DNA of 6,858 bases from Candidatus Iainarchaeum sp. (GCA_003559395.1 PWLL01000032.1:1-6858); one strand, 5' to 3'; shown: positions 1 to 6,858, numbered from the stretch's first letter. Notes: generated by a model from the sequence alone, not told the origin. A program made the numbers and translations.

Positions 1-335
1 ATAGTTTCTTTAAATCGTCCAACAATTCGAACATCTTCTTCTTGAACATCTTTTCCTATAATCGTAATTGTTGGATTTACAAAGTCTATCTTTGATTTAT
101 TATCTACATAAAACCTTATTTCTTTTGTTAAGGAGTTAATACTAACGTTTTTTAAAAGAAATTCTGCATCCATACAATCTATAGCACTAGAAGTTCTTCT
201 AGTTTCTCTTTCTGCATCTCCTAAAAAATCTAAGGTTATTTCGCTTCCCCAACTAAGATAAATCCCCACCAATATAGATGCGACTAACACTAACAAAACA
301 ATTCCTATTATCGGCGATATTCCTTTTTTGCTCAT
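1..335 (-). CDS. Archaeal type IV pilin-like protein (class III signal peptide, Pilin_N/DUF1628-type N-terminus). The 5' end is complete and the 3' end runs off the window.
   Basis: This ORF is not in the supplied track because it is truncated by the window edge. My translation from the ATG at 335-333 (minus strand) is MSKKGISPIIGIVLLVLVASILVGIYLSWGSEITLDFLGDAERETRRTSSAIDCMDAEFLLKNVSINSLTKEIRFYVDNKSKIDFVNPTITIIGKDVQEEDVRIVGRFKET... It has 111 codons with no stop. A short basic leader (KKG) followed by ISPIIG and about 20 hydrophobic residues is the canonical archaeal prepilin/prearchaellin processing motif, with predicted cleavage after G5. There is no Glu at +5, so it is not bacterial type IVa or Flp-like. 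It lies 13 nt downstream of the DUF192 gene on the same strand. Confidence 0.8.
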   Translation of the reverse strand, partial: MSKKGISPIIGIVLLVLVASILVGIYLSWGSEITLDFLGDAERETRRTSSAIDCMDAEFLLKNVSINSLTKEIRFYVDNKSKIDFVNPTITIIGKDVQEEDVRIVGRFKET

Positions 336-348
336 ATTTCTTCTTATT

Positions 349-699
349 TTAAAACCACTCAATCACATCTTTTGTTTCTATAGAATCTATTTTTATTTTG
401 TTTGACAACTCAATAACATATCTTGCTTTTTTCTTTGGAGTATACATACAAAATGGTTTAAAGTTTTTTTTAATATCTACAATTTCTTTTTCTGCATTCA
501 AAAACAAAACATTTATTTTAATAAATACAAAAAACATATGTAGGGTTGCTCTTTCTTTACTTTCTGTTTTTAGATCAAATATCAACCCATAGTCAATATC
601 TTTAAACCTAAACATTAGTCCAAGTCCTCTTTTTAAAAAATTATCTGCTATTTTCTTTTTTTCAACAATAGTTTTGTTTTTAGTTTTATTAACAATCAT
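349..699 (-). CDS. DUF192 (COG1430) family protein of unknown function
   Basis: ATG at 699, TAA at 349-351, 116 aa. The sequence matches the DUF192 pattern by eye: KIADNFLKRGLGLMFR, then GLIF, then LHMFFVFIKINVLFLN(AEKEIVDI), then KPF, then ARYVIEL, then I(ETKDVIEW). This corresponds to the conserved A-x-t-x(3)-r-x-rGLM, hM-x-f-x(2)-piDvvFld, Pw, yvLEl and Gd-x-v blocks. No N-terminal signal peptide or TM segment is visible. Confidence 0.75.
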   Translation of the reverse strand: MIVNKTKNKTIVEKKKIADNFLKRGLGLMFRFKDIDYGLIFDLKTESKERATLHMFFVFIKINVLFLNAEKEIVDIKKNFKPFCMYTPKKKARYVIELSNKIKIDSIETKDVIEWF

Positions 700-702
700 A
701 TT

Positions 703-1827
703 TTATCTACTAATCCTATAATATATTATAAATTCTGTGTTTCTTTTTTCTATCTCAAAATCAAAAAAATGAATACTTTCTAAAATAATCGTATATTTTG
801 CACATTCTAGCCCACAAGCTTTTTCTTCTTCTTTTATAAAGTGGATCATCGTTGCGCCTGTTTCTTCCATAATCTCTCTAGAACTTATTGATTTTATTCC
901 AATTGTTCTTTCTATAGTTAGGGTTTGATCTTCAATATCTTTAAGATACGCTACTCCATCAACAAGTATTTCTGTGGCGTCTGGTTTTGGTGTAAAGGTT
1001 TGAAACAATATCACTGTTATTATGAAAAATATTGTTGCGTATTTAAAAAAATACAAGGGTTTTCTTTGTTTTATAACACACATAACAAATGATGTAAACA
1101 ACGACAACAACAAAGAGATATATAACAAAAAGTTATTAATAAACAGTCTTGTGATTGATTCTGCTGTATAGAACCACAAAAACTGTCTAGATATTATAAA
1201 GTCAATATACAATAACATAAAAACAAACACAAAATAAAAGATAATAGACAAAAGGAAAAGATTTTCAAAATATTTCTCTGTACTTTTTTCTGATTTAAAT
1301 ATGCTTGTATCTTTTGATAGGTTTATTAGTATTCTATCATATGAGACAGAGGTGTTTTTTAGGACATCTAACAAAGATAAACAATGATCAATAATCTTAC
1401 TTTGAATATTTTCGTTCATTGCTTTTAAAGAGTCTTCAAGGGTTTCTCCCCATGAGACTTTGTTGGCTAGTTTTTTTATGTCTCTGTTAATACTTCCATA
1501 AAAGTTTGATTCTGATAAATTTGTTAAAGCAACACCAATGTTGTTTGTTTTTTTATATTCTCTTCCAAGGTCTGCTAAAAAATAACTAAACTCACTTTCG
1601 ATTGTTTTTTTCTTATCATTCTTTATTAAGTATTCAATAATAAATCCAAGACTTCCAACAACTAAACCAAAGAAAAACAAAAAATAGTAAATATTGCTTT
1701 GATAAAACAAATTATTTGCTATAGCTATAATTAACAAACCAGATAGGATTCCTGAAAACTCAAGAATCTGATATTCGTTTTTGTAAAAAAACAAATCTAT
1801 TTTTTTATATGTTTTTTTTGGTTTCAT
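703..1827 (-). CDS. Type IV pilus platform membrane protein with a single T2SSF-like domain (TadC/FlaJ-half-like) and an extra ~96-aa C-terminal soluble domain
   Basis: ATG at 1827, TAA at 703-705, 374 aa. By eye it has two N-terminal TM segments (ILEFSGILSGLLIIAIANNLF and YYFLFFFGLVVGSLGFIIEYLI). A ~115-aa helical soluble block follows, whose pattern resembles the T2SSF/GspF repeat (IESEFSYFLADLGREYKKTNNIGVALTNLSE...INRDIKKLANKVSWGETLEDSLKAMNEN...). Three hydrophobic segments come next, then a non-hydrophobic C-terminal tail (nt 706..993) containing CGLEC. It sits directly after the other platform-like gene and the ATPase homolog. The family assignment rests on pattern and context only. Confidence 0.6.
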   Translation of the reverse strand: MKPKKTYKKIDLFFYKNEYQILEFSGILSGLLIIAIANNLFYQSNIYYFLFFFGLVVGSLGFIIEYLIKNDKKKTIESEFSYFLADLGREYKKTNNIGVALTNLSESNFYGSINRDIKKLANKVSWGETLEDSLKAMNENIQSKIIDHCLSLLDVLKNTSVSYDRILINLSKDTSIFKSEKSTEKYFENLFLLSIIFYFVFVFMLLYIDFIISRQFLWFYTAESITRLFINNFLLYISLLLSLFTSFVMCVIKQRKPLYFFKYATIFFIITVILFQTFTPKPDATEILVDGVAYLKDIEDQTLTIERTIGIKSISSREIMEETGATMIHFIKEEEKACGLECAKYTIILESIHFFDFEIEKRNTEFIIYYRISR

Positions 1828-1835
1828 ATTCGTTT

Positions 1836-2675
1836 CTATTTATTTAATATTATAATTAACAAAACTTCCAACACAGGAAACAAAACAGCAATCACCATTA
1901 AGATTTGCCCAATCAACACTCCTTCTGACGCTATAAAAAACAAGCCTGACAATAGAAAAAAAACTATTAAAAACAAGAACATATTTACTTGAAAAAGAAT
2001 GTTTGTTTTTGCTTTTCTTTGTTCTTTTTCTTCTCTTATTGTTTGTTCTATATTTTCTAAAAATTCATCTAATATTTTTTGTAGGCTTTCTTTTTTGTCT
2101 ATAACGTCTATTAGTTTTCTGAAAAACTCGTTTTCTATTTCTGAGTATGTGCTTTTCCTCACATAATCTAAAGTGCTTCTTAGATTCTTGTTAAGGTCTG
2201 CCATTGACAAAACTCTTTTTGATTCTTTTGTTAAAAGGTCGTTAAAATCAAATTTCTGTAAGATCAACAAAACATCTTTAACAGTCATGTTTGGATCTTT
2301 CAAAACTTGTAGATGTTTTATGCTTTTTTGTATTTCTTGTTCTATTTTTTTTCTTTTGGCTATTATTGCATAGGTTGGATATTTATAGAACATTAAAAAA
2401 AACAAAGTTGTAAAGGTTAAAGATATAAAGATAGTTACTAAGAAACTAATTAGATCAAAATATATATTTACAAAAATTAATAAGAAGATTATTAAAAACT
2501 CAAACATAACAAAGAAAATAAACGACATTAACAAAGAGTTGGATAGATATGTGACTACGTCTTGATTGATTCCTGAGTTTTTTATTGATCTTTTTAGTCC
2601 TGATAACTTTGGTTCAAATAGCTTTACTATATCTCTAAAGAAAAACAATGCTATTTTTGTAAATATTTTATTCAT
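1836..2675 (-). CDS. Type IV pilus platform membrane protein with a single T2SSF-like domain (TadB/FlaJ-half-like)
   Basis: ATG at 2675, TAG at 1836-1838, 279 aa. The N-terminus (LKRSIKNSGINQDVVTYLSNSLLMS) resembles the FlaJ/TadB N-terminal L-x(2)-AGI-x(4)-Y motif. It is followed by 2 TM segments, a ~120-aa charged helical block (AKRKKIEQEIQKSIKHLQVL...TLDYVRKST...FFRKLIDVIDKKESLQKILDEF) and 2 C-terminal TM segments. Its start codon overlaps the ATPase-homolog stop by 8 nt (ATGAATAA). Confidence 0.6.
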   Translation of the reverse strand: MNKIFTKIALFFFRDIVKLFEPKLSGLKRSIKNSGINQDVVTYLSNSLLMSFIFFVMFEFLIIFLLIFVNIYFDLISFLVTIFISLTFTTLFFLMFYKYPTYAIIAKRKKIEQEIQKSIKHLQVLKDPNMTVKDVLLILQKFDFNDLLTKESKRVLSMADLNKNLRSTLDYVRKSTYSEIENEFFRKLIDVIDKKESLQKILDEFLENIEQTIREEKEQRKAKTNILFQVNMFLFLIVFFLLSGLFFIASEGVLIGQILMVIAVLFPVLEVLLIIILNK

Positions 2676-5202
2676 TCTGATCTATGTTTAGTTTTTTAAG
2701 AAGTTTTTTAGGATCTTTTTGATAGTCATCTACTATGTTGTTAAAGTCTCTATAATCGTCTATGTCTGTTTTTTGCATCCAATAAAGAACTTCTTTTTTG
2801 TTTTTATAGTCTACTATGTCTATATTTGAGGATAGTAGATTTATTCTAAATCCTAGATTATCTTCGTTTAGTTTAAGGATATTATATTCTTTTCCTTTCA
2901 CATATTCGTTTATTTCTTCTATTTGTATTTGTTCTTGTTTTCCAAGATTTATTCTTTTTAGATTTATGACAATTGTTTTTTGTCCTATTAGTTTCATTTT
3001 TTCTATAATTGAGGAGAATATCTTCAAATCTGCTGTTAAAAGATTAATATTATACCATGTTGATTCAAAAAACTCTTCTATAAAGTTATCCACAATAATG
3101 TAGTCTGGTTTTTCTGCTATACTTTGATCAAGAATAGTTTTTAGTTCTATTTCACTTGTTCTATCTGATTTTCTTCTAATCCATTTTTTTTGTGGAAGTT
3201 TTAGGTTGTCGTGTGTTTGTATTGTTATTATTTCTTTATCTGGATATAATAAGGAAATTCCATTTAACATAATAGATTTGTCACAGTTTCCAGTTATGAT
3301 TATATGGTAGTCTTTTGCTATTGCTGACCAAATATAAGAGTAAATATCAATGGTACCTATTCCTAAGTTTACTAGAGAGATAGGACACAAAGGTTTATCT
3401 AAAAATTTCTTAATAACAAATGAAGAGCCTTTACTGCTTATATCTCCAACAGAATAAAGTCCTTCTAATTTATATCCATTAGGAAGGTATCCATCAATTA
3501 CTGGATGGTTTGAATTTATATAAAGCCCCATAGTTTTTGTTAAACCAAGCACAAACACATTTAACTTTGGCACATCTTCAAAAAACAAGTTTGTTTCTAT
3601 CATTCCGTATTTAATATGATATACGTTTATTGGTGTTCCTGCGCCCATACAGTTTACTTCTATTATGTTTTCATCTCTTAGTACGTTTGCTAAAAACCCA
3701 AGCCCAGTAAAGTCATTTTCTATAAACAAAAGATAGAGTTTTTTGTCTAGTGATGAGATTGGTGAAGAGATCTTATCTATTGATAGGTCATATATTTTAG
3801 AGATGTAGTTTTTAATTTCTTGCGAATCTCCTTTAAATGAGAAAAAGTTTTGATCAATGGAATCTAGAAAGATTTCTTTTATTTCTTGGTATATTTTGTC
3901 TTGTTCTGGTGTTAGTTTTGGTTGAACAATATTATAGAATAATCTATTTTCTTTATATGAGATTGTTACAAACGTAAAATCATTAATACTGTATTTATCA
4001 TAAACATTTGTTAGATCTTTTTTTCTCTTAGCCACATCGATAGTATAAACTAGATGTCCTATATCTTGTTGTTCTTTGTTTCTATCTGAGATAAAGGTTG
4101 TGGTTCTCATTGTTCTTGGTGTTTCTGTTTTGTTTTTTGTATTATCATCTATTGGTCTTACATATTCAAAAGTATCCTCTTTTGGTTCTTTTTCTTTTAC
4201 ATCTTTTATTTTTGGTTGTTCTTTTGGTTGTTCAACAACAATCGTTTTTTGTTCTATATTTCTTGGTTTTTCATCAATTTTTTTTATATTTTCTTTTACG
4301 TATGGATTAACATCCACTCCTTTTCCTGTATCTACCATAACTGGAATCGGTTCTTCTTTTTCTTCGGATTTTTGTTCTTGACTTAAAAAGTCTTCATCTT
4401 CATAGTTTATTAAGTTAGTATAATCTTTAAGAGAAATAATATCAGGCACATCAATTTCTTCAATAATTCCTAAGGTTTTTTTATTATCTAGTTTTTTAGT
4501 TTTATTATCTAGTTTTTTATTTTTATTTTCTTGTTTCTTATCATCTTTTGAAAAGGAATCTATTTTTGAGTAGAGGTTTTGTATTTTATAGTTTTTTAGT
4601 TTTATTCTTTTTACAGTTGGTTCATCTTCTAAAAAAGAAAAGGTTTCTATTGCTGGTTCTGTATCTTTGGATATTTGGTCTGTTCTTTCTGAAAGCTCGT
4701 CCAGCATATCGTCTATAGTGTTTAGTTTTGGTGATTTATTTTCTTCTGTTGTTGGTTTTAGAGTTTGTGTTTTTGGTTCTTTTTTTCTTAAACTTTCTGA
4801 AAGCTTTGGTTCTTTTTTCTTCAAAGTTTTTTTAAAAGATTTTTCGGTTTTTGGTTTTGTTTCAGGGTCTTTTTTTCTAAAACTTTCTGAAGGCTTTGGT
4901 TCTTTTTTCTTCAAAGTTTTTTTAAAAGATTTTTCGGTTTTTGGTTTTGTTTCAGGTTCTTTTTTTCTAAAACTTTCTGAAGGCTTTTTTTCTGAGTCTA
5001 TTTTTTTTAAAGGCTTTAACTTTTTTAAAGAATAGTTTTTTGGCACATATTTTTCTAATGGTTTTTCTTTATATTCAACATTTATTTTTTCTAGTCTTCT
5101 GTTCTTGTTTTTTGGCACATTGACATCTAAACTAGTCTCATGACTGTTTGATTCTTTTTTTTCTGAAAACTTTGTTAGTTTTTTTAGAACCATCTTTTTC
5201 AA
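2668..5202 (-). CDS. FlaI/PilB/GspE-family (T2SSE) secretion-ATPase homolog with degenerate catalytic motifs and a ~370-aa low-complexity repeat-bearing N-terminal extension. It is a probable pseudo-ATPase.
   Basis: 844-codon open frame in very AT-rich DNA, which is highly non-random. The track start at 5202 is a TTG (plus-strand caa at 5200-5202). The first ATG is 3 codons later at 5193 (MVLKKL...). Residues ~380-630 match the archaeal FlaI-type N-domain and linker well by eye: YNIVQPKLTPEQ (Y-x-V-EP-x-L), IIEVNCMGAGTPINVYHIKYGMIETNLFFED, LNVFVLGLTKTMGLYINSNHPVIDGYLPNGYKLEG, SSKGSSFVIKKF and PISLVNLGIGT. The C-terminal domain aligns to the ATPase core (IIITG..., KLPQKKWI, KPDYIIV...), but its motifs are degenerate (see findings). 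Stop TAA at 2668-2670. Confidence 0.85.
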   Translation of the reverse strand: MKKMVLKKLTKFSEKKESNSHETSLDVNVPKNKNRRLEKINVEYKEKPLEKYVPKNYSLKKLKPLKKIDSEKKPSESFRKKEPETKPKTEKSFKKTLKKKEPKPSESFRKKDPETKPKTEKSFKKTLKKKEPKLSESLRKKEPKTQTLKPTTEENKSPKLNTIDDMLDELSERTDQISKDTEPAIETFSFLEDEPTVKRIKLKNYKIQNLYSKIDSFSKDDKKQENKNKKLDNKTKKLDNKKTLGIIEEIDVPDIISLKDYTNLINYEDEDFLSQEQKSEEKEEPIPVMVDTGKGVDVNPYVKENIKKIDEKPRNIEQKTIVVEQPKEQPKIKDVKEKEPKEDTFEYVRPIDDNTKNKTETPRTMRTTTFISDRNKEQQDIGHLVYTIDVAKRKKDLTNVYDKYSINDFTFVTISYKENRLFYNIVQPKLTPEQDKIYQEIKEIFLDSIDQNFFSFKGDSQEIKNYISKIYDLSIDKISSPISSLDKKLYLLFIENDFTGLGFLANVLRDENIIEVNCMGAGTPINVYHIKYGMIETNLFFEDVPKLNVFVLGLTKTMGLYINSNHPVIDGYLPNGYKLEGLYSVGDISSKGSSFVIKKFLDKPLCPISLVNLGIGTIDIYSYIWSAIAKDYHIIITGNCDKSIMLNGISLLYPDKEIITIQTHDNLKLPQKKWIRRKSDRTSEIELKTILDQSIAEKPDYIIVDNFIEEFFESTWYNINLLTADLKIFSSIIEKMKLIGQKTIVINLKRINLGKQEQIQIEEINEYVKGKEYNILKLNEDNLGFRINLLSSNIDIVDYKNKKEVLYWMQKTDIDDYRDFNNIVDDYQKDPKKLLKKLNIDQNE
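4479..4527. repeat. Short tandem 21-bp repeat (~2.3 copies) in frame in the same N-terminal extension
   Basis: Positions 4479-4498 equal 4500-4519 at an offset of 21. There is a mismatch at 4499/4520, and the match then continues to about 4527. It encodes NKKLDNKTKKLDNKKT (a KKLDNK[TK] heptad). Confidence 0.8.
4775..4988. repeat. Tandem 90-bp direct repeat, ~2.4 copies, in frame inside the ATPase-homolog N-terminal extension
   Basis: Period 90 nt. The string aactttctga recurs at 4791, 4881 and 4971. Positions 4811-4860 are identical to 4901-4950 (50/50), and flanking positions differ by only a few substitutions. It encodes PSESFRKKEPETKPKTEKSFKKTLKKKEPK, then PSESFRKKDPETKPKTEKSFKKTLKKKEPK, then a partial LSESLRKKEPK. 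Confidence 0.95.
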
Positions 5203-5287
5203 ATTATATTTTACTATATATTACAAAAATATATTATAGTCTATAATAAAAATAAGTCCATTACATTTATAAATATATTTTATCTTG
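5203..5287 (-). promoter_or_regulatory. AT-rich spacer upstream of the ATPase-homolog operon. Probable promoter region with several TATA-like elements.
   Basis: Read on the minus strand, the spacer contains TTTATAAAT, TTATTATAG, CTATAATATAT and TAATATATAG. The last element (about 5212-5221) is centred roughly 25 nt upstream of the ATG at 5193, which is compatible with a leaderless or short-leader archaeal transcript. It cannot be told apart from background AT-richness by eye. Confidence 0.3.
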
Positions 5288-5301
5288 AAAAAACAAAAAA
5301 A
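5288..5301 (-). terminator. Oligo-T tract (T7-G-T6 on the minus strand) immediately after the peptidase stop codon. Candidate archaeal intrinsic terminator.
   Basis: The minus strand reads TAA-A-TTTTTTT-G-TTTTTT-C directly downstream of the stop at 5303-5305. Archaeal RNAP terminates at oligo-T runs. Such runs are common in this AT-rich DNA, so confidence is low. Confidence 0.35.
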
Positions 5302-5302
5302 T

Positions 5303-6037
5303 TTACAAAAAACTAACAATTCCATAGTTTGCTAGTATTCCAAAAAATAAAAACAAAGCAACAATTACATATGAAACAAACAAAGCAACAATAAAAGGAA
5401 TTAACGGAGAGGCCCATAGTTCAGAAATATTGTTTTTTCTAGCTAAAGATTTTATGTATCTTAGTTGTGCTTTTGGTGAACAGTTTGGTTCTAGTTGTAC
5501 TTCTTTGACTAATTTTTTGTTTTTGTATTTTAGTATTTCTAGAGGCGTATAAAAGTCAGTTATTTTTTCTAAAGGCATTTTGGTTCCTAAAAACATCATG
5601 ATTGTATTTTTTAAAAAACCATGTTCTGGTTTTTGTTTTTTAATAAGATTATATATAAAAAATGATAAAGGAATAATAAGCATAATAAACAAAGCTAGCA
5701 AGAACACAAGCTGGGAAAAAGCATACAAAAAACCACTAGTAAATGAGATTAACAAAACAACTAATAAATCTCCTTCTCCGATATACGCAAAAGAAGTCAT
5801 TTTTCCAAAAACATAAATGATTGTTAAAAAGATGATCGTGATTATTATTTGTGAAAAATATTGTGTCCACAAGAAACAATTGTTTCTAAACACAAACAAA
5901 TAAAGATAAACAACAGATAATAAACAAACAACAATTATTGGTATTATATTTATTTCTCTATATTTTATATCTTGATAAACATAATAAAAAACTAATATAA
6001 AACAAACAATAAACAATGGTAATACGCGCAATAACAT
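5303..6037 (-). CDS. Prepilin/preflagellin peptidase, aspartic peptidase family A24 (PibD/FlaK/EppA-like)
   Basis: The track ORF is 5303..6094, but its first codon is TTG (plus-strand caa at 6092-6094). The ATG at 6037 gives MLLRVLPLFIVCFILVFYYVYQDIKYREI..., the typical family architecture of a first TM helix followed by the first catalytic Asp (D at nt 5969-5971 in YQDIKYREI). The second catalytic Asp lies in a GxGD-type motif, IGEGDLLV (D at nt 5768-5770). The protein is polytopic, with a ~75-aa soluble insertion before the last TM segment. Stop TAA at 5303-5305. Start is either 6037 (preferred) or 6094. Confidence 0.8.
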   Translation of the reverse strand: MLLRVLPLFIVCFILVFYYVYQDIKYREINIIPIIVVCLLSVVYLYLFVFRNNCFLWTQYFSQIIITIIFLTIIYVFGKMTSFAYIGEGDLLVVLLISFTSGFLYAFSQLVFLLALFIMLIIPLSFFIYNLIKKQKPEHGFLKNTIMMFLGTKMPLEKITDFYTPLEILKYKNKKLVKEVQLEPNCSPKAQLRYIKSLARKNNISELWASPLIPFIVALFVSYVIVALFLFFGILANYGIVSFL

Positions 6038-6094
6038 GATTTTCTCTTTTTTATTTATAAAAAAACGATTTCTTATTAATTTATGATAAACCAA

Positions 6095-6178: not shown

Positions 6179-6858
6179 ATGGTAAAAATAACTTCAATTG
6201 GATTTATTCTTGATGGAAATAGAAGATATGGTGTTAAAAAAAAAATCACTTATAAAGAAGCTTATTCTTTAGGTGCAAAAAAAGCAAGAACAGTTATTGA
6301 ACACATATACAAGAAACACAAAAAAATAAAACAAATACATCTTTTTACTTTATCTAAAGAAAATCTAGAAAATAGAAGTAAATTAGAGTTAAATGAGTTA
6401 TTTAATTTATTTAAAGAAAATAAAAAATATTTAGATGGTCTTAGTAAAAATATAAGCATTAAGTTTATTGGTAATTTTTCTAAGTTGCCTAGTGATTTTA
6501 AAAAAGAAGTTATTAAAACTAATAACTCTTCTACTAAAAAAAGATTAACGATTTATTTTTGTTTAGGTTATGGTGGCCGACAAGAAATTGTTGATGCTGT
6601 AAACAAAATTAATAACAAAAATATTAAAACAAAGATAACAGAAAAAACTTTTAAAAAATATTTGTACGATAAAGACATCATTGATCCAGAGGTAATTGTT
6701 AGAACCTCAGGCACAAAAAGATTGTCTGGGTTTATGTTATATCACGCAGCTTATTCTGAGCTTTGTTTTTTAAATAAATTGTGGCCAGAGATAACTATTA
6801 AAGATGTTGATAAAATCATTTATGATTTTAAATATGTTAGTAAAAACTTTGGTGCTTA
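6179..6858 (+). CDS. uppS: Isoprenyl (undecaprenyl/dehydrodolichyl-type) diphosphate synthase, cis-prenyltransferase family. The 3' end runs off the window and is probably within a few codons of the stop.
   Basis: This ORF is not in the track because it has no stop in the window. My translation from the ATG at 6179 is MVKITSIGFILDGNRRYGVKKKITYKEAYSLGAKKARTVIEH...LFTLSKENLENRS...IYFCLGYGGRQEIVDAV...VIVRTSGTKRLSGFMLYHAAYSELCFLNKLWPEITIKD...YVSKNFGA. It matches the cis-IPTase signature blocks DGNRR[WY], [FL]S-x-EN-x-x-R, GYGGR-x-EI, [IV]RT[SG]G-x-x-R-x-S-x-F and Y-x-E-x-x-F-x(4)-WP. There is no in-frame stop over 226 codons. Confidence 0.9.
   Translation, partial: MVKITSIGFILDGNRRYGVKKKITYKEAYSLGAKKARTVIEHIYKKHKKIKQIHLFTLSKENLENRSKLELNELFNLFKENKKYLDGLSKNISIKFIGNFSKLPSDFKKEVIKTNNSSTKKRLTIYFCLGYGGRQEIVDAVNKINNKNIKTKITEKTFKKYLYDKDIIDPEVIVRTSGTKRLSGFMLYHAAYSELCFLNKLWPEITIKDVDKIIYDFKYVSKNFGA

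Follow-up and report, generated by a model that had tools for sequence, protein, structure and literature searches.

A type IV filament-like operon of Iainarchaeota with a conserved predicted pseudo-ATPase, and an intact companion module in related genomes

The window analysed here is a stretch of 6,858 nucleotides from Candidatus Iainarchaeum sp. (GCA_003559395.1, PWLL01000032.1:1-6858), taken as a whole. Its minus strand carries, in this order, a FlaK/PibD-type prepilin peptidase, a FlaI/GspE-like protein, two platform proteins (T2SSF-1 and T2SSF-2), a DUF192 protein and a pilin. The FlaI/GspE-like protein keeps the predicted fold of a filament motor and lacks the catalytic motifs, as do all of its close homologues found, and it is read here as a conserved pseudo-ATPase. 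Related genomes contain a second module with an intact TadA-like ATPase that is fused to an iron-sulphur domain and followed by two platform genes of its own. The best explanation has a probability of about 0.45. It holds that Iainarchaeota (Diapherotrites, DPANN) have a characteristic type IV filament system of Tad/Epd-like kind, of which the window is the module that bears the pilin, and that this dead-motor operon and the intact module jointly assemble an adhesive LamG-pilin product, with DUF192 as an accessory.

The operon and its conservation

An earlier reading, made from the sequence without database searches (the sequence-only reading), had proposed the same six minus-strand genes. All are found by the list of open reading frames (ORFs), by direct reading and by Pfam and NCBIfam scans. 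The junctions that it gave from the ATPase homologue to the pilin (-8, 8, 3 and 13 nt) are exact when recomputed from the ORF list. The pilin gene is incomplete and runs off the end of the window. FlaH, FlaF/G, FlaX and secretin domains are absent from the Pfam and NCBIfam scans of the window, which agrees with that reading.

The operon order recurs in 16 independent genome or assembly loci (labelled with L and a number below where they must be told apart), which were gathered by context look-ups and a scan of GTDB representative genomes. Mapping with tblastn gives the order peptidase, FlaI-like protein, T2SSF-1, T2SSF-2 and DUF192 in all 16 wherever the contig reaches, and 6-7 further copies of the operon lie on metagenome contigs. 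This recurrence indicates that the arrangement is not due to chance. The named carriers are Ca. Iainarchaeum, Ca. Diapherotrites and the complete genome of Ca. Forterrea multitransposorum (CP045477), all belonging to Iainarchaeota/Diapherotrites. The neighbourhood is thus conserved among relatives, a point on which the sequence-only reading had staked its case, and its type IV filament-like operon of small-genome archaea is that of a DPANN lineage. The flanking genes also keep a conserved order, with TrkH/TrkA, NMD3, a beta-CASP nuclease and undecaprenyl-diphosphate (cis-prenyl) synthase (UPPS) upstream, and rpl10e, a methyltransferase and NDK downstream. The constancy of these housekeeping flanks suggests that the cluster is vertically inherited in this phylum.

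The pseudo-ATPase

The FlaI-like protein has no match to Pfam T2SSE, or to any other Pfam domain, in the Pfam scan. An exact look-up of its 844-aa and 841-aa forms gave no match. It matches the NCBIfam FlaI model at 3.7e-35, a score far below the cutoff of that model, and phmmer searches of the PDB return afGspE (2OAP, 1.6e-37) and FlaI (4II7, 2.7e-25). The C-terminal half retrieves a tight family of about 12 proteins with 46-73% identity, none of which has Pfam T2SSE. Beyond this family, the next matches are ordinary FlaI-like ATPases at 24-28% identity.

The catalytic motifs were compared in a motif table of 16 pseudo-ATPase sequences, including the window, aligned with intact relatives, and in HMMER alignments to 2OAP and 4II7. 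Walker A, the Asp-box acids, the catalytic Glu and the His box are lost in 16/16, and the degenerate motor described in the sequence-only reading is therefore a feature of every homologue found. Walker A is 2-3 residues shorter, reading GNC--DKS in the window, and its Lys is kept only in the window and L005 and is gone in 14/16. The Asp box E-D/E-x-x-E of the intact relatives becomes Q-[STA]-[YFH]-D. At Walker B, the G-E of the relatives is replaced by D-[N/E/D/T/Q], and this second position looks unconstrained, because N, E, D, T and Q vary freely there. The His box (T-G-H...T-x-H-A) is deleted, and the Arg of the TIRKF motif is Lys in 16/16. The FlaI-like protein would thus be a conserved pseudo-ATPase that has lost ATP hydrolysis.

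The C-terminal half is 46-73% identical between loci, with more than 130 invariant columns, and the ORFs are full-length in all 16 loci (788-1209 aa). Since this identity is similar to that of the neighbouring genes, the pseudo-ATPase appears to be under purifying selection. By its sequence it is a predicted pseudo-enzyme under selection, not a pseudogene. In a neighbour-joining tree that covers the sequences gathered in this analysis, the pseudo-ATPases are monophyletic on a long branch, and their nearest intact relatives are FlaI/afGspE-like and not TadA-like. The PDB phmmer and Foldseek searches agree with the tree in placing the protein nearer to afGspE/FlaI than to CpaF.

An AlphaFold2 (AF2) model of residues 377-841, the C-terminal 465 aa, has a predicted local distance difference test score (pLDDT) of 87.4 and a predicted template modelling score of 0.84. 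Foldseek superposes afGspE 2OAP over the full length of this model (template modelling (TM) score 0.79, E 4e-32), and FlaI 4II7/4IHQ follow with TM scores up to 0.70. The afGspE and FlaI matches range in E from 1e-29 to 4e-32 and stand ahead of CpaF and PilB/PilT. The fold kept by the pseudo-ATPase, as modelled, is the full two-domain afGspE/FlaI fold.

The N-terminal tail is predicted to be disordered. The full-length AF2 model is poor (pLDDT 47) and serves for tail disorder only, with no claims on the fold; pLDDT is below 50 for nearly all of residues 1-391. The tail contains five conserved islands, PF.E..SFL.D.P, NLY.KID, LIEEI.IPEI, NP..E..IK and Y.LP.D. Its length differs by more than 400 aa between genomes despite these short motifs. 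A tandem repeat in the tail encodes repeated KPSESFRKK-EPETKPKTEKSFKKTLKKKEP units. Repeats have been described in a Forterrea "secretion-related ATPase" (Probst and Banfield 2018), which may or may not be the product of the pseudo-ATPase gene.

The second module with an intact motor

In L005, DUF192 is followed after a 67-bp gap by a 596-aa ATPase and two small T2SSF-like genes. This ATPase has an N-terminal 4Fe-4S dicluster domain (Fd-ATPase below), and its GNTGSGKTT, GEIR, Asp box and His box are intact. The junction of DUF192 and Fd-ATPase occurs again on an independent contig (L035). Fd-ATPases form a large family, and its named members are again metagenome-assembled genomes (MAGs) of Iainarchaeum/Diapherotrites. 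Fd-fused TadA-like ATPases, each followed by two small T2SSF-like genes, are located at L005 10080-13475, L024 6001-9303, L025 5001-8231 and L022 1179-4491.

The orthologue P0036 lies on contig NPID01000316.1 (L025). The start of L025 overlaps the end of the Forterrea locus with 94.5% nucleotide identity over 2.8 kb, so that in the Forterrea lineage the intact module follows DUF192 on the same strand at a distance of about 10 kb. NPID01000316.1 carries both modules, as the pseudo-ATPase operon was also recovered there (L042). Of two further orthologues, one comes from SRR490129, the sequencing run that also yielded the contig of the window itself, and the other from the assembly in which the window's nearest homologue is found. 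These two are 80% identical to each other, and the corresponding pseudo-ATPases are 70% identical. On NPIE01, 2 kb downstream of the Fd-ATPase module, a 711-aa protein (L024 11336-13471) has the class III signal peptide MVFMLKKS/VSPLIAIILL....

The sequence-only reading implied a compact and self-sufficient system, and this does not hold for the relatives. Because related genomes carry a live TadA-like motor with its own platform pair, directly after DUF192 in L005 and about 10 kb away in the Forterrea lineage, the compact set probably either makes up half of a larger system or is one of two.

Peptidase, platform proteins and surface proteins

The coordinates of the features in the window are listed in Table 1.

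Table 1. Features of the 6,858-nt window
Feature	Position	Strand	Basis and remarks
Modular type IV pilin, 5' part	1..335	-	Class III signal peptide, pilin domain; LamG lectin domain past the window
DUF192/UPF0127 protein, 116 aa	349..699	-	Pfam DUF192 1.5e-12
Platform protein 2 (T2SSF-2; divergent T2SSF domain), 374 aa	703..1827	-	Profile scans and orthologues
Platform protein 1 (T2SSF-1; TadB/TadC/FlaJ-like, one T2SSF domain), 279 aa	1836..2675	-	8-nt overlap with the pseudo-ATPase stop
Predicted FlaI/GspE-family pseudo-ATPase, 841 aa	2668..5193	-	Likely ATG 5193; full ORF 2668-5202
Walker B remnant, IIVDN against IIVGE	3085..3099	-	Catalytic Glu replaced; His box deleted downstream
Walker A remnant, G-N-C-D-K-S against G-x-x-x-x-G-K-T/S	3274..3291	-	2-residue deletion; HMMER alignments to 2OAP/4II7, motif table
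Lysine/glutamate-rich N-terminal tail of the pseudo-ATPase, about 376-380 aa	4066..5193	-	Predicted disordered, short conserved islands
90-bp tandem repeat in the tail, 2.6 copies	4754..4987	-	93% match; Tandem Repeats Finder score 408
AT-rich spacer	5194..5302	-	Oligo-T tract right after the peptidase stop; direct reading of the sequence
FlaK/PibD-type (A24) prepilin peptidase, 244 aa	5303..6037	-	Likely ATG start 6037, length like homologues
UPPS, neighbour outside the system	6179..6858	+	Pfam Prenyltransf 2.5e-54; divergent, cut by the window end

The longest ORF of the peptidase covers 5303-6094, with a TTG start at 6094. The protein matches Pfam Arc_PepC_II (E=3.7e-8, 34.3 bits, cutoff 29.9) and NCBIfam FlaK (3.5e-11), and both catalytic Asp contexts (QDIKYREI and GEGD) align with FlaK 3S0X. 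Orthologues occupy the equivalent position in 14 loci. A T-rich tract, TTTTTTTGTTTTTT, lies 3' of its stop, and the next gene is about 100-109 nt away. This spacer between peptidase and pseudo-ATPase, already pointed out in the sequence-only reading, is by its sequence a possible terminator and promoter region.

T2SSF-1 matches Pfam T2SSF (2.2e-8, 34.5 bits, cutoff 25.2) and NCBIfam FlaJ (8.8e-7), and its orthologues are 41-67% identical across loci. T2SSF-2 has a sub-threshold Pfam T2SSF match (0.013, 16 bits) and a match to the N-terminal region of FlaJ (2.2e-6). Its orthologue in L004 has a strong precomputed T2SSF match, and the orthologues are 46-68% identical over the full length. All of them share an extra C-terminal domain of about 95 aa with a C-x3-C pair past the last hydrophobic segment (703-984 in the window), which is unusual for platform proteins. 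The topology, read by eye from the sequence, suggests that this domain is probably outside the cell. One variant of the operon, L034 3617-7351 (ERZ795044 NODE-205), comprises peptidase, pseudo-ATPase and DUF192 and lacks both platform genes; DUF192 starts 72 nt past the pseudo-ATPase stop, and rpl10e is next as usual.

The sequence-only reading took the two single-domain platform genes as a distinguishing mark. According to Makarova et al. (2016, PMC4858521), a pair of tadC-like genes is found in many euryarchaeal loci of clade 2, and the clade 1 systems (Methanococci) contain "two TadC components". In the closest intact relatives found, the ATPase is likewise followed by two T2SSF genes. The argument for novelty from the platform split therefore fails, as two platform genes are normal in Epd/Tad-like systems.

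The pilin starts at position 335 with the class III signal peptide MSKKG/ISPIIGIVLLVLVA (MSKKG/ISPIIG...). An identical DUF192 gene occurs on two short contigs, L001 and L002 (JGI 3300000563 SL_3KL_010_SED and Logan SRR490129), on which the window pilin continues to a length of at least 292 aa and includes a LamG/ConA-like lectin domain (Pfam Laminin_G_3 1.5e-9, Arch_flagellin 3.4e-4). The L003 orthologue has 389 aa and matches Laminin_G_3 at 8e-17. The pilin seen earlier in the window is thus a class III signal peptide pilin, and the extension with its Laminin_G_3 domain makes it a modular lectin pilin and not a small major subunit.

Pilin genes after DUF192 are found in one sub-lineage only (the window, L003, L010-L012 and L016), with orthologous pilins directly after DUF192 in L003, L010, L012 and L016. 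Forterrea and L012 have pilins of 174-178 aa, which are possible major subunits. In several loci, the pilin genes are succeeded by genes of large surface proteins (Big_12, PKD and a 1571-aa multi-domain protein), at L003 15893-22308, L016 14502-16292 and L010 15238-18342. The 486-aa Big_12 protein of L003 has a hydrophobic pilin-like N-terminal segment, but it failed the class III signal-peptide screen. Outside the sub-lineage, DUF192 is followed by a spacer of about 450 bp and then by rpl10e. In L004 (14750-15206) and L009 (13771-14250), this spacer has no tRNA and no Rfam match, and spurious minus-strand ORFs in both contain RKEQGPV; it may be an unannotated RNA or a regulatory region.

DUF192

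The window protein belongs to the DUF192 family (PF02643, 47.9 bits, cutoff 27), matches the archaeal NCBIfam model PRK03760 at 4.1e-32, and its profile matches PDB 3PJY at 7.6e-6 and 3M7A at 5e-4. It has no signal peptide or membrane segment and is of cytoplasmic type, and in the lack of a signal peptide it differs from many bacterial DUF192 members and from the secreted Haloferax HVO_0504. DUF192 holds the same operon position in 14 loci.

The occurrence of DUF192 was surveyed in a metagenome scan of 80 loci, of which 23 have at least 4 kb on both sides and were scored. Four lie in the pseudo-ATPase operon context, in seven an intact T2SSE ATPase, mostly accompanied by two T2SSF genes, is no more than 4 kb away, and 12 have no pilus gene nearby. 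In an unrelated archaeal MAG (L027/L028), the homologue P0144 (50% identity) immediately precedes an intact 493-aa ATPase, and two T2SSF genes come next. In the neighbour-joining tree, the DUF192-linked intact ATPases are TadA/CpaF-like and form two groups, one of which is sister to the Fd-fused enzymes. No pilus genes occur within 8 kb of the Woesearchaeota DUF192 locus L026, and its small neighbours are not pilins. DUF192 also stands at the 3' end of Tad operons in the bacteria Bulleidia extructa and Helcococcus ovis (2025, PMC12786226). It had been named as a part that sets the window apart from known systems; it is indeed a fixed member of this operon, but its place beside intact pilus ATPases elsewhere (7/23 loci; PMC12786226) means that it is not unique to it. 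DUF192 is a recurrent and non-obligatory neighbour of archaeal pilus ATPase modules. No paper was found that links DUF192 or COG1430 with archaeal pili.

UPPS is near DUF192 in many loci from outside Iainarchaeota. It lies divergently upstream of DUF192, with no pseudo-ATPase operon, in L036, L037, L041, L043, L046, L051, L063, L087, L097, L099 and L101. The ancestral order is likely UPPS and then, on the opposite strand, DUF192, a TadA-like ATPase and two T2SSF genes. In Iainarchaeota, the block of peptidase, pseudo-ATPase and platform genes sits between UPPS and DUF192, which suggests that it was inserted into this old order.

Proposed mechanism and alternatives

In the joint assembly proposed above, processing of the LamG pilin and of further pilin-like proteins would fall to the peptidase. 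The dead hexamer would be joined to the two platform proteins in a membrane complex, as a ring that has a structural or regulatory role and does not hydrolyse ATP, and the disordered, motif-bearing tail of the pseudo-ATPase could be a docking arm that recruits partners. The energy for pilin extraction and polymerisation would come from the Fd-fused TadA-like ATPase with its own platform pair; ATPase/TadC modules that act on pilins encoded in trans are a precedent (Makarova et al. 2016). Through the Fe-S domain, assembly is possibly linked to the redox state. DUF192 would be an accessory factor of the ATPase/platform core; it stands between the two modules where they are contiguous (L005), and in other archaeal loci from metagenomes it immediately precedes TadA-like ATPases. 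The product may be a short adhesive fibre or a surface array of lectin and immunoglobulin-domain pilins that serves attachment. The specific form of a two-module machine, with a dead ring and recruiting tail, a redox-sensing TadA-like ATPase, and DUF192 as a core accessory shared by archaeal and bacterial Tad/Epd-like systems, is put forward tentatively and is on balance doubtful.

Several observations weigh against joint assembly. The loss of ATPase activity is read from the sequence only. What places the Fd-ATPase in the window's own genome is a shared sample (SRR490129). Among the 16 operon loci, a second intact ATPase lies within 10 kb in L005 only, and the coupling of the modules is inferred from proximity in two lineages. 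The Fd-ATPase module may be an independent system, because it has its own platform pair and the 711-aa pilin-like protein nearby. L034 does without either platform gene. For DUF192, there are the 12 of 23 well-flanked loci without a nearby pilus gene, and since the UPPS-DUF192 synteny is widespread, some of the adjacency may reflect inherited gene order and not function.

The pseudo-ATPase module could instead be an autonomous non-motor membrane complex (an anchor, gate or regulator, such as a FlaH-, TadZ- or PilM-like brake or localisation factor), unrelated to a separate pilus of the Fd-ATPase module. Each module having its own platform pair, the pilin-like protein near the Fd-ATPase module of NPIE01, the non-adjacency of the modules in most lineages, and the descent of the pseudo-ATPase from a FlaI/afGspE-like clade where the intact ATPase is TadA-like would all fit such a complex. 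It is nevertheless unlikely: the only prepilin peptidase and LamG pilins seen belong to the pseudo-ATPase operon, in L005 the modules adjoin each other with DUF192 in the middle, and the extraction of pilins from the membrane is energy-dependent in all type IV filament systems studied. A bindosome-like display of large class III signal peptide proteins (LamG, Big_12, PKD) without a long filament would account for the large and modular downstream proteins (at least 292 and 389 aa with LamG, 486 aa with Big_12, 358-502 aa in L010) and for the lineages without a small pilin after DUF192. The sequence level does not separate display from filament, but the 174-178 aa pilins of Forterrea and L012 could be major subunits, and modular lectin pilins reportedly occur in true pili, for example in Streptococcus sanguinis, which makes pure display distinctly unlikely.

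It is improbable that the FlaI-like protein is still an enzyme with a non-canonical nucleotide site and the operon a self-sufficient compact pilus system. The fold is intact in the model, what is left of the P-loop in the window includes a Lys-Ser pair, and D-E occupies the Walker B position of some homologues; yet the P-loop is 2-3 residues short and without its Lys in 14/16, the Asp-box acids have become Q and aromatic residues, the His box is deleted, the TIRKF Arg is Lys throughout, and the second Walker B residue varies among N, E, D, T and Q. A decaying relic that is being lost would suit the reductive genomes of DPANN and the loss of both platform genes in L034. This reading was rejected on conservation and is hardly credible, as full-length ORFs persist in all 16 loci with more than 130 invariant columns at 46-73% identity, and the gene order is conserved and the genes tightly packed.

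Significance

It is assumed that type IV filament machines need a hexameric ATPase with catalytic activity. A motor paralogue that is dead but conserved across an archaeal phylum would imply that this fold has a second and non-enzymatic job, as scaffold, clamp or regulator. The communication of the ATPase ring with the platform could then be studied on a "separation of function" variant that occurs in nature. In the two-module reading, the PilB/GspE/FlaI superfamily would, to our knowledge, gain its first natural pseudo-enzyme whose role is conserved. A pilus motor that senses the redox state would be of interest by itself. The orphan family DUF192 gains its first reproducible archaeal genomic context, beside pilus ATPases, in agreement with the observation in bacterial Tad operons. 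The lectin-bearing pilins, the peptidase and the assembly genes are candidates for the attachment of DPANN cells to a host or to surfaces; we know of no appendage described in the Iainarchaeota lineage. Both the conserved dead motor and the link to DUF192 come as a surprise and can be tested, and the functional claims made for them are drawn from genomics alone.

Comparison with known systems

By the parts that define the type IV filament superfamily, the window has an A24 prepilin peptidase with two catalytic aspartates, a polytopic platform protein with T2SSF domains, and a pilin with a class III signal peptide (MSKKG/ISPIIGIVLLVLVASILV; weak Arch_flagellin and arch_flag_Nterm matches). It lacks a PilB/GspE/FlaI/TadA-family ATPase with Walker A, Asp box, Walker B and His box. 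The archaellum parts FlaH, FlaF/FlaG, FlaX or FlaC/D/E and a two-domain FlaJ are missing from the window and from the 22-kb loci L003 and L004 as annotated with Pfam. A reading as an archaellum was rejected for the absence of FlaH, FlaF, FlaG and FlaX and for the platform split into two genes.

FlaI (4II7/4IHQ) and afGspE (2OAP) have the same predicted two-domain fold over the C-terminal 465 aa of the window protein. The sequence similarity to 2OAP/4II7 extends from the N-terminal domain to the middle of the ATPase domain, and the HMMER alignment ends at Walker B. Unlike FlaI and afGspE, the window protein has no GKT P-loop, Asp-box acids, catalytic Glu or His box, and no archaellum genes are nearby. 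FlaH/ArlH (KaiC-like), TadZ/CpaE (MinD-like), and PilM and GspL (actin-like) are non-catalytic nucleotide-fold accessory proteins of type IV filament machines. They offer a possible analogy of role, as a degenerate NTPase-fold scaffold or regulator at the cytoplasmic face of the machine, but they belong to other superfamilies, whereas the window protein is a motor paralogue with its own platform pair.

Modular lectin-bearing pilins are reportedly part of true type IV pili in S. sanguinis. As in the window, a pilin N-terminus is fused to a ConA/LamG-like lectin module that is presumably adhesive. The window pilin differs in its archaeal class III signal peptide, and the likeness is one of layout and not of demonstrated sequence kinship. 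The Sulfolobus bindosome (Bas) may be compared by functional analogy only, as no solute-binding proteins were seen. The Tad-type operons of B. extructa and H. ovis contain, like the window, a short DUF192 protein (112-120 aa), but they are bacterial, have an intact TadA and place DUF192 differently, and the paper draws no archaeal link (PMC12786226).

No paper was found on degenerate-Walker PilB homologues or on Iainarchaeota pili. The combination of a phylum-wide pseudo-ATPase with its own platform pair, a fixed DUF192 and a companion Fd-fused live motor was found described nowhere, which accords with the possibly undescribed subtype suggested in the sequence-only reading. Makarova et al. (2016, PMC4858521) mention neither DUF192 nor inactivated ATPases, and they report that ATPase/TadC modules act on pilins encoded in trans.

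The closest systems are the Epd-like pili (M. maripaludis (Methanococcus) Epd; Makarova clades 1 and 2) and the bacterial Tad/Flp pili, with which the window has a common minimal core without secretin and FlaH/FlaX. The shared parts are an ATPase homologue, two separate single-domain TadB/TadC-like platform genes beside its gene, class III signal peptide pilins and an A24 peptidase. Several parts differ. The peptidase is of the five-transmembrane FlaK/PibD type with Arc_PepC_II and not the nine-transmembrane EppA of Epd. The window ATPase homologue is catalytically dead as judged by sequence and has a disordered tail of about 380 aa. In place of an active TadA/CpaF-type (or EpdL-type) ATPase as motor of the operon, the TadA-like enzyme is in the second module. 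The fixed DUF192, the LamG-lectin pilin and the companion intact Fd-fused TadA-like module in related genomes are further differences. Apart from these, the cluster is built like an Epd/Tad-type minimal type IV filament system and would work like one.

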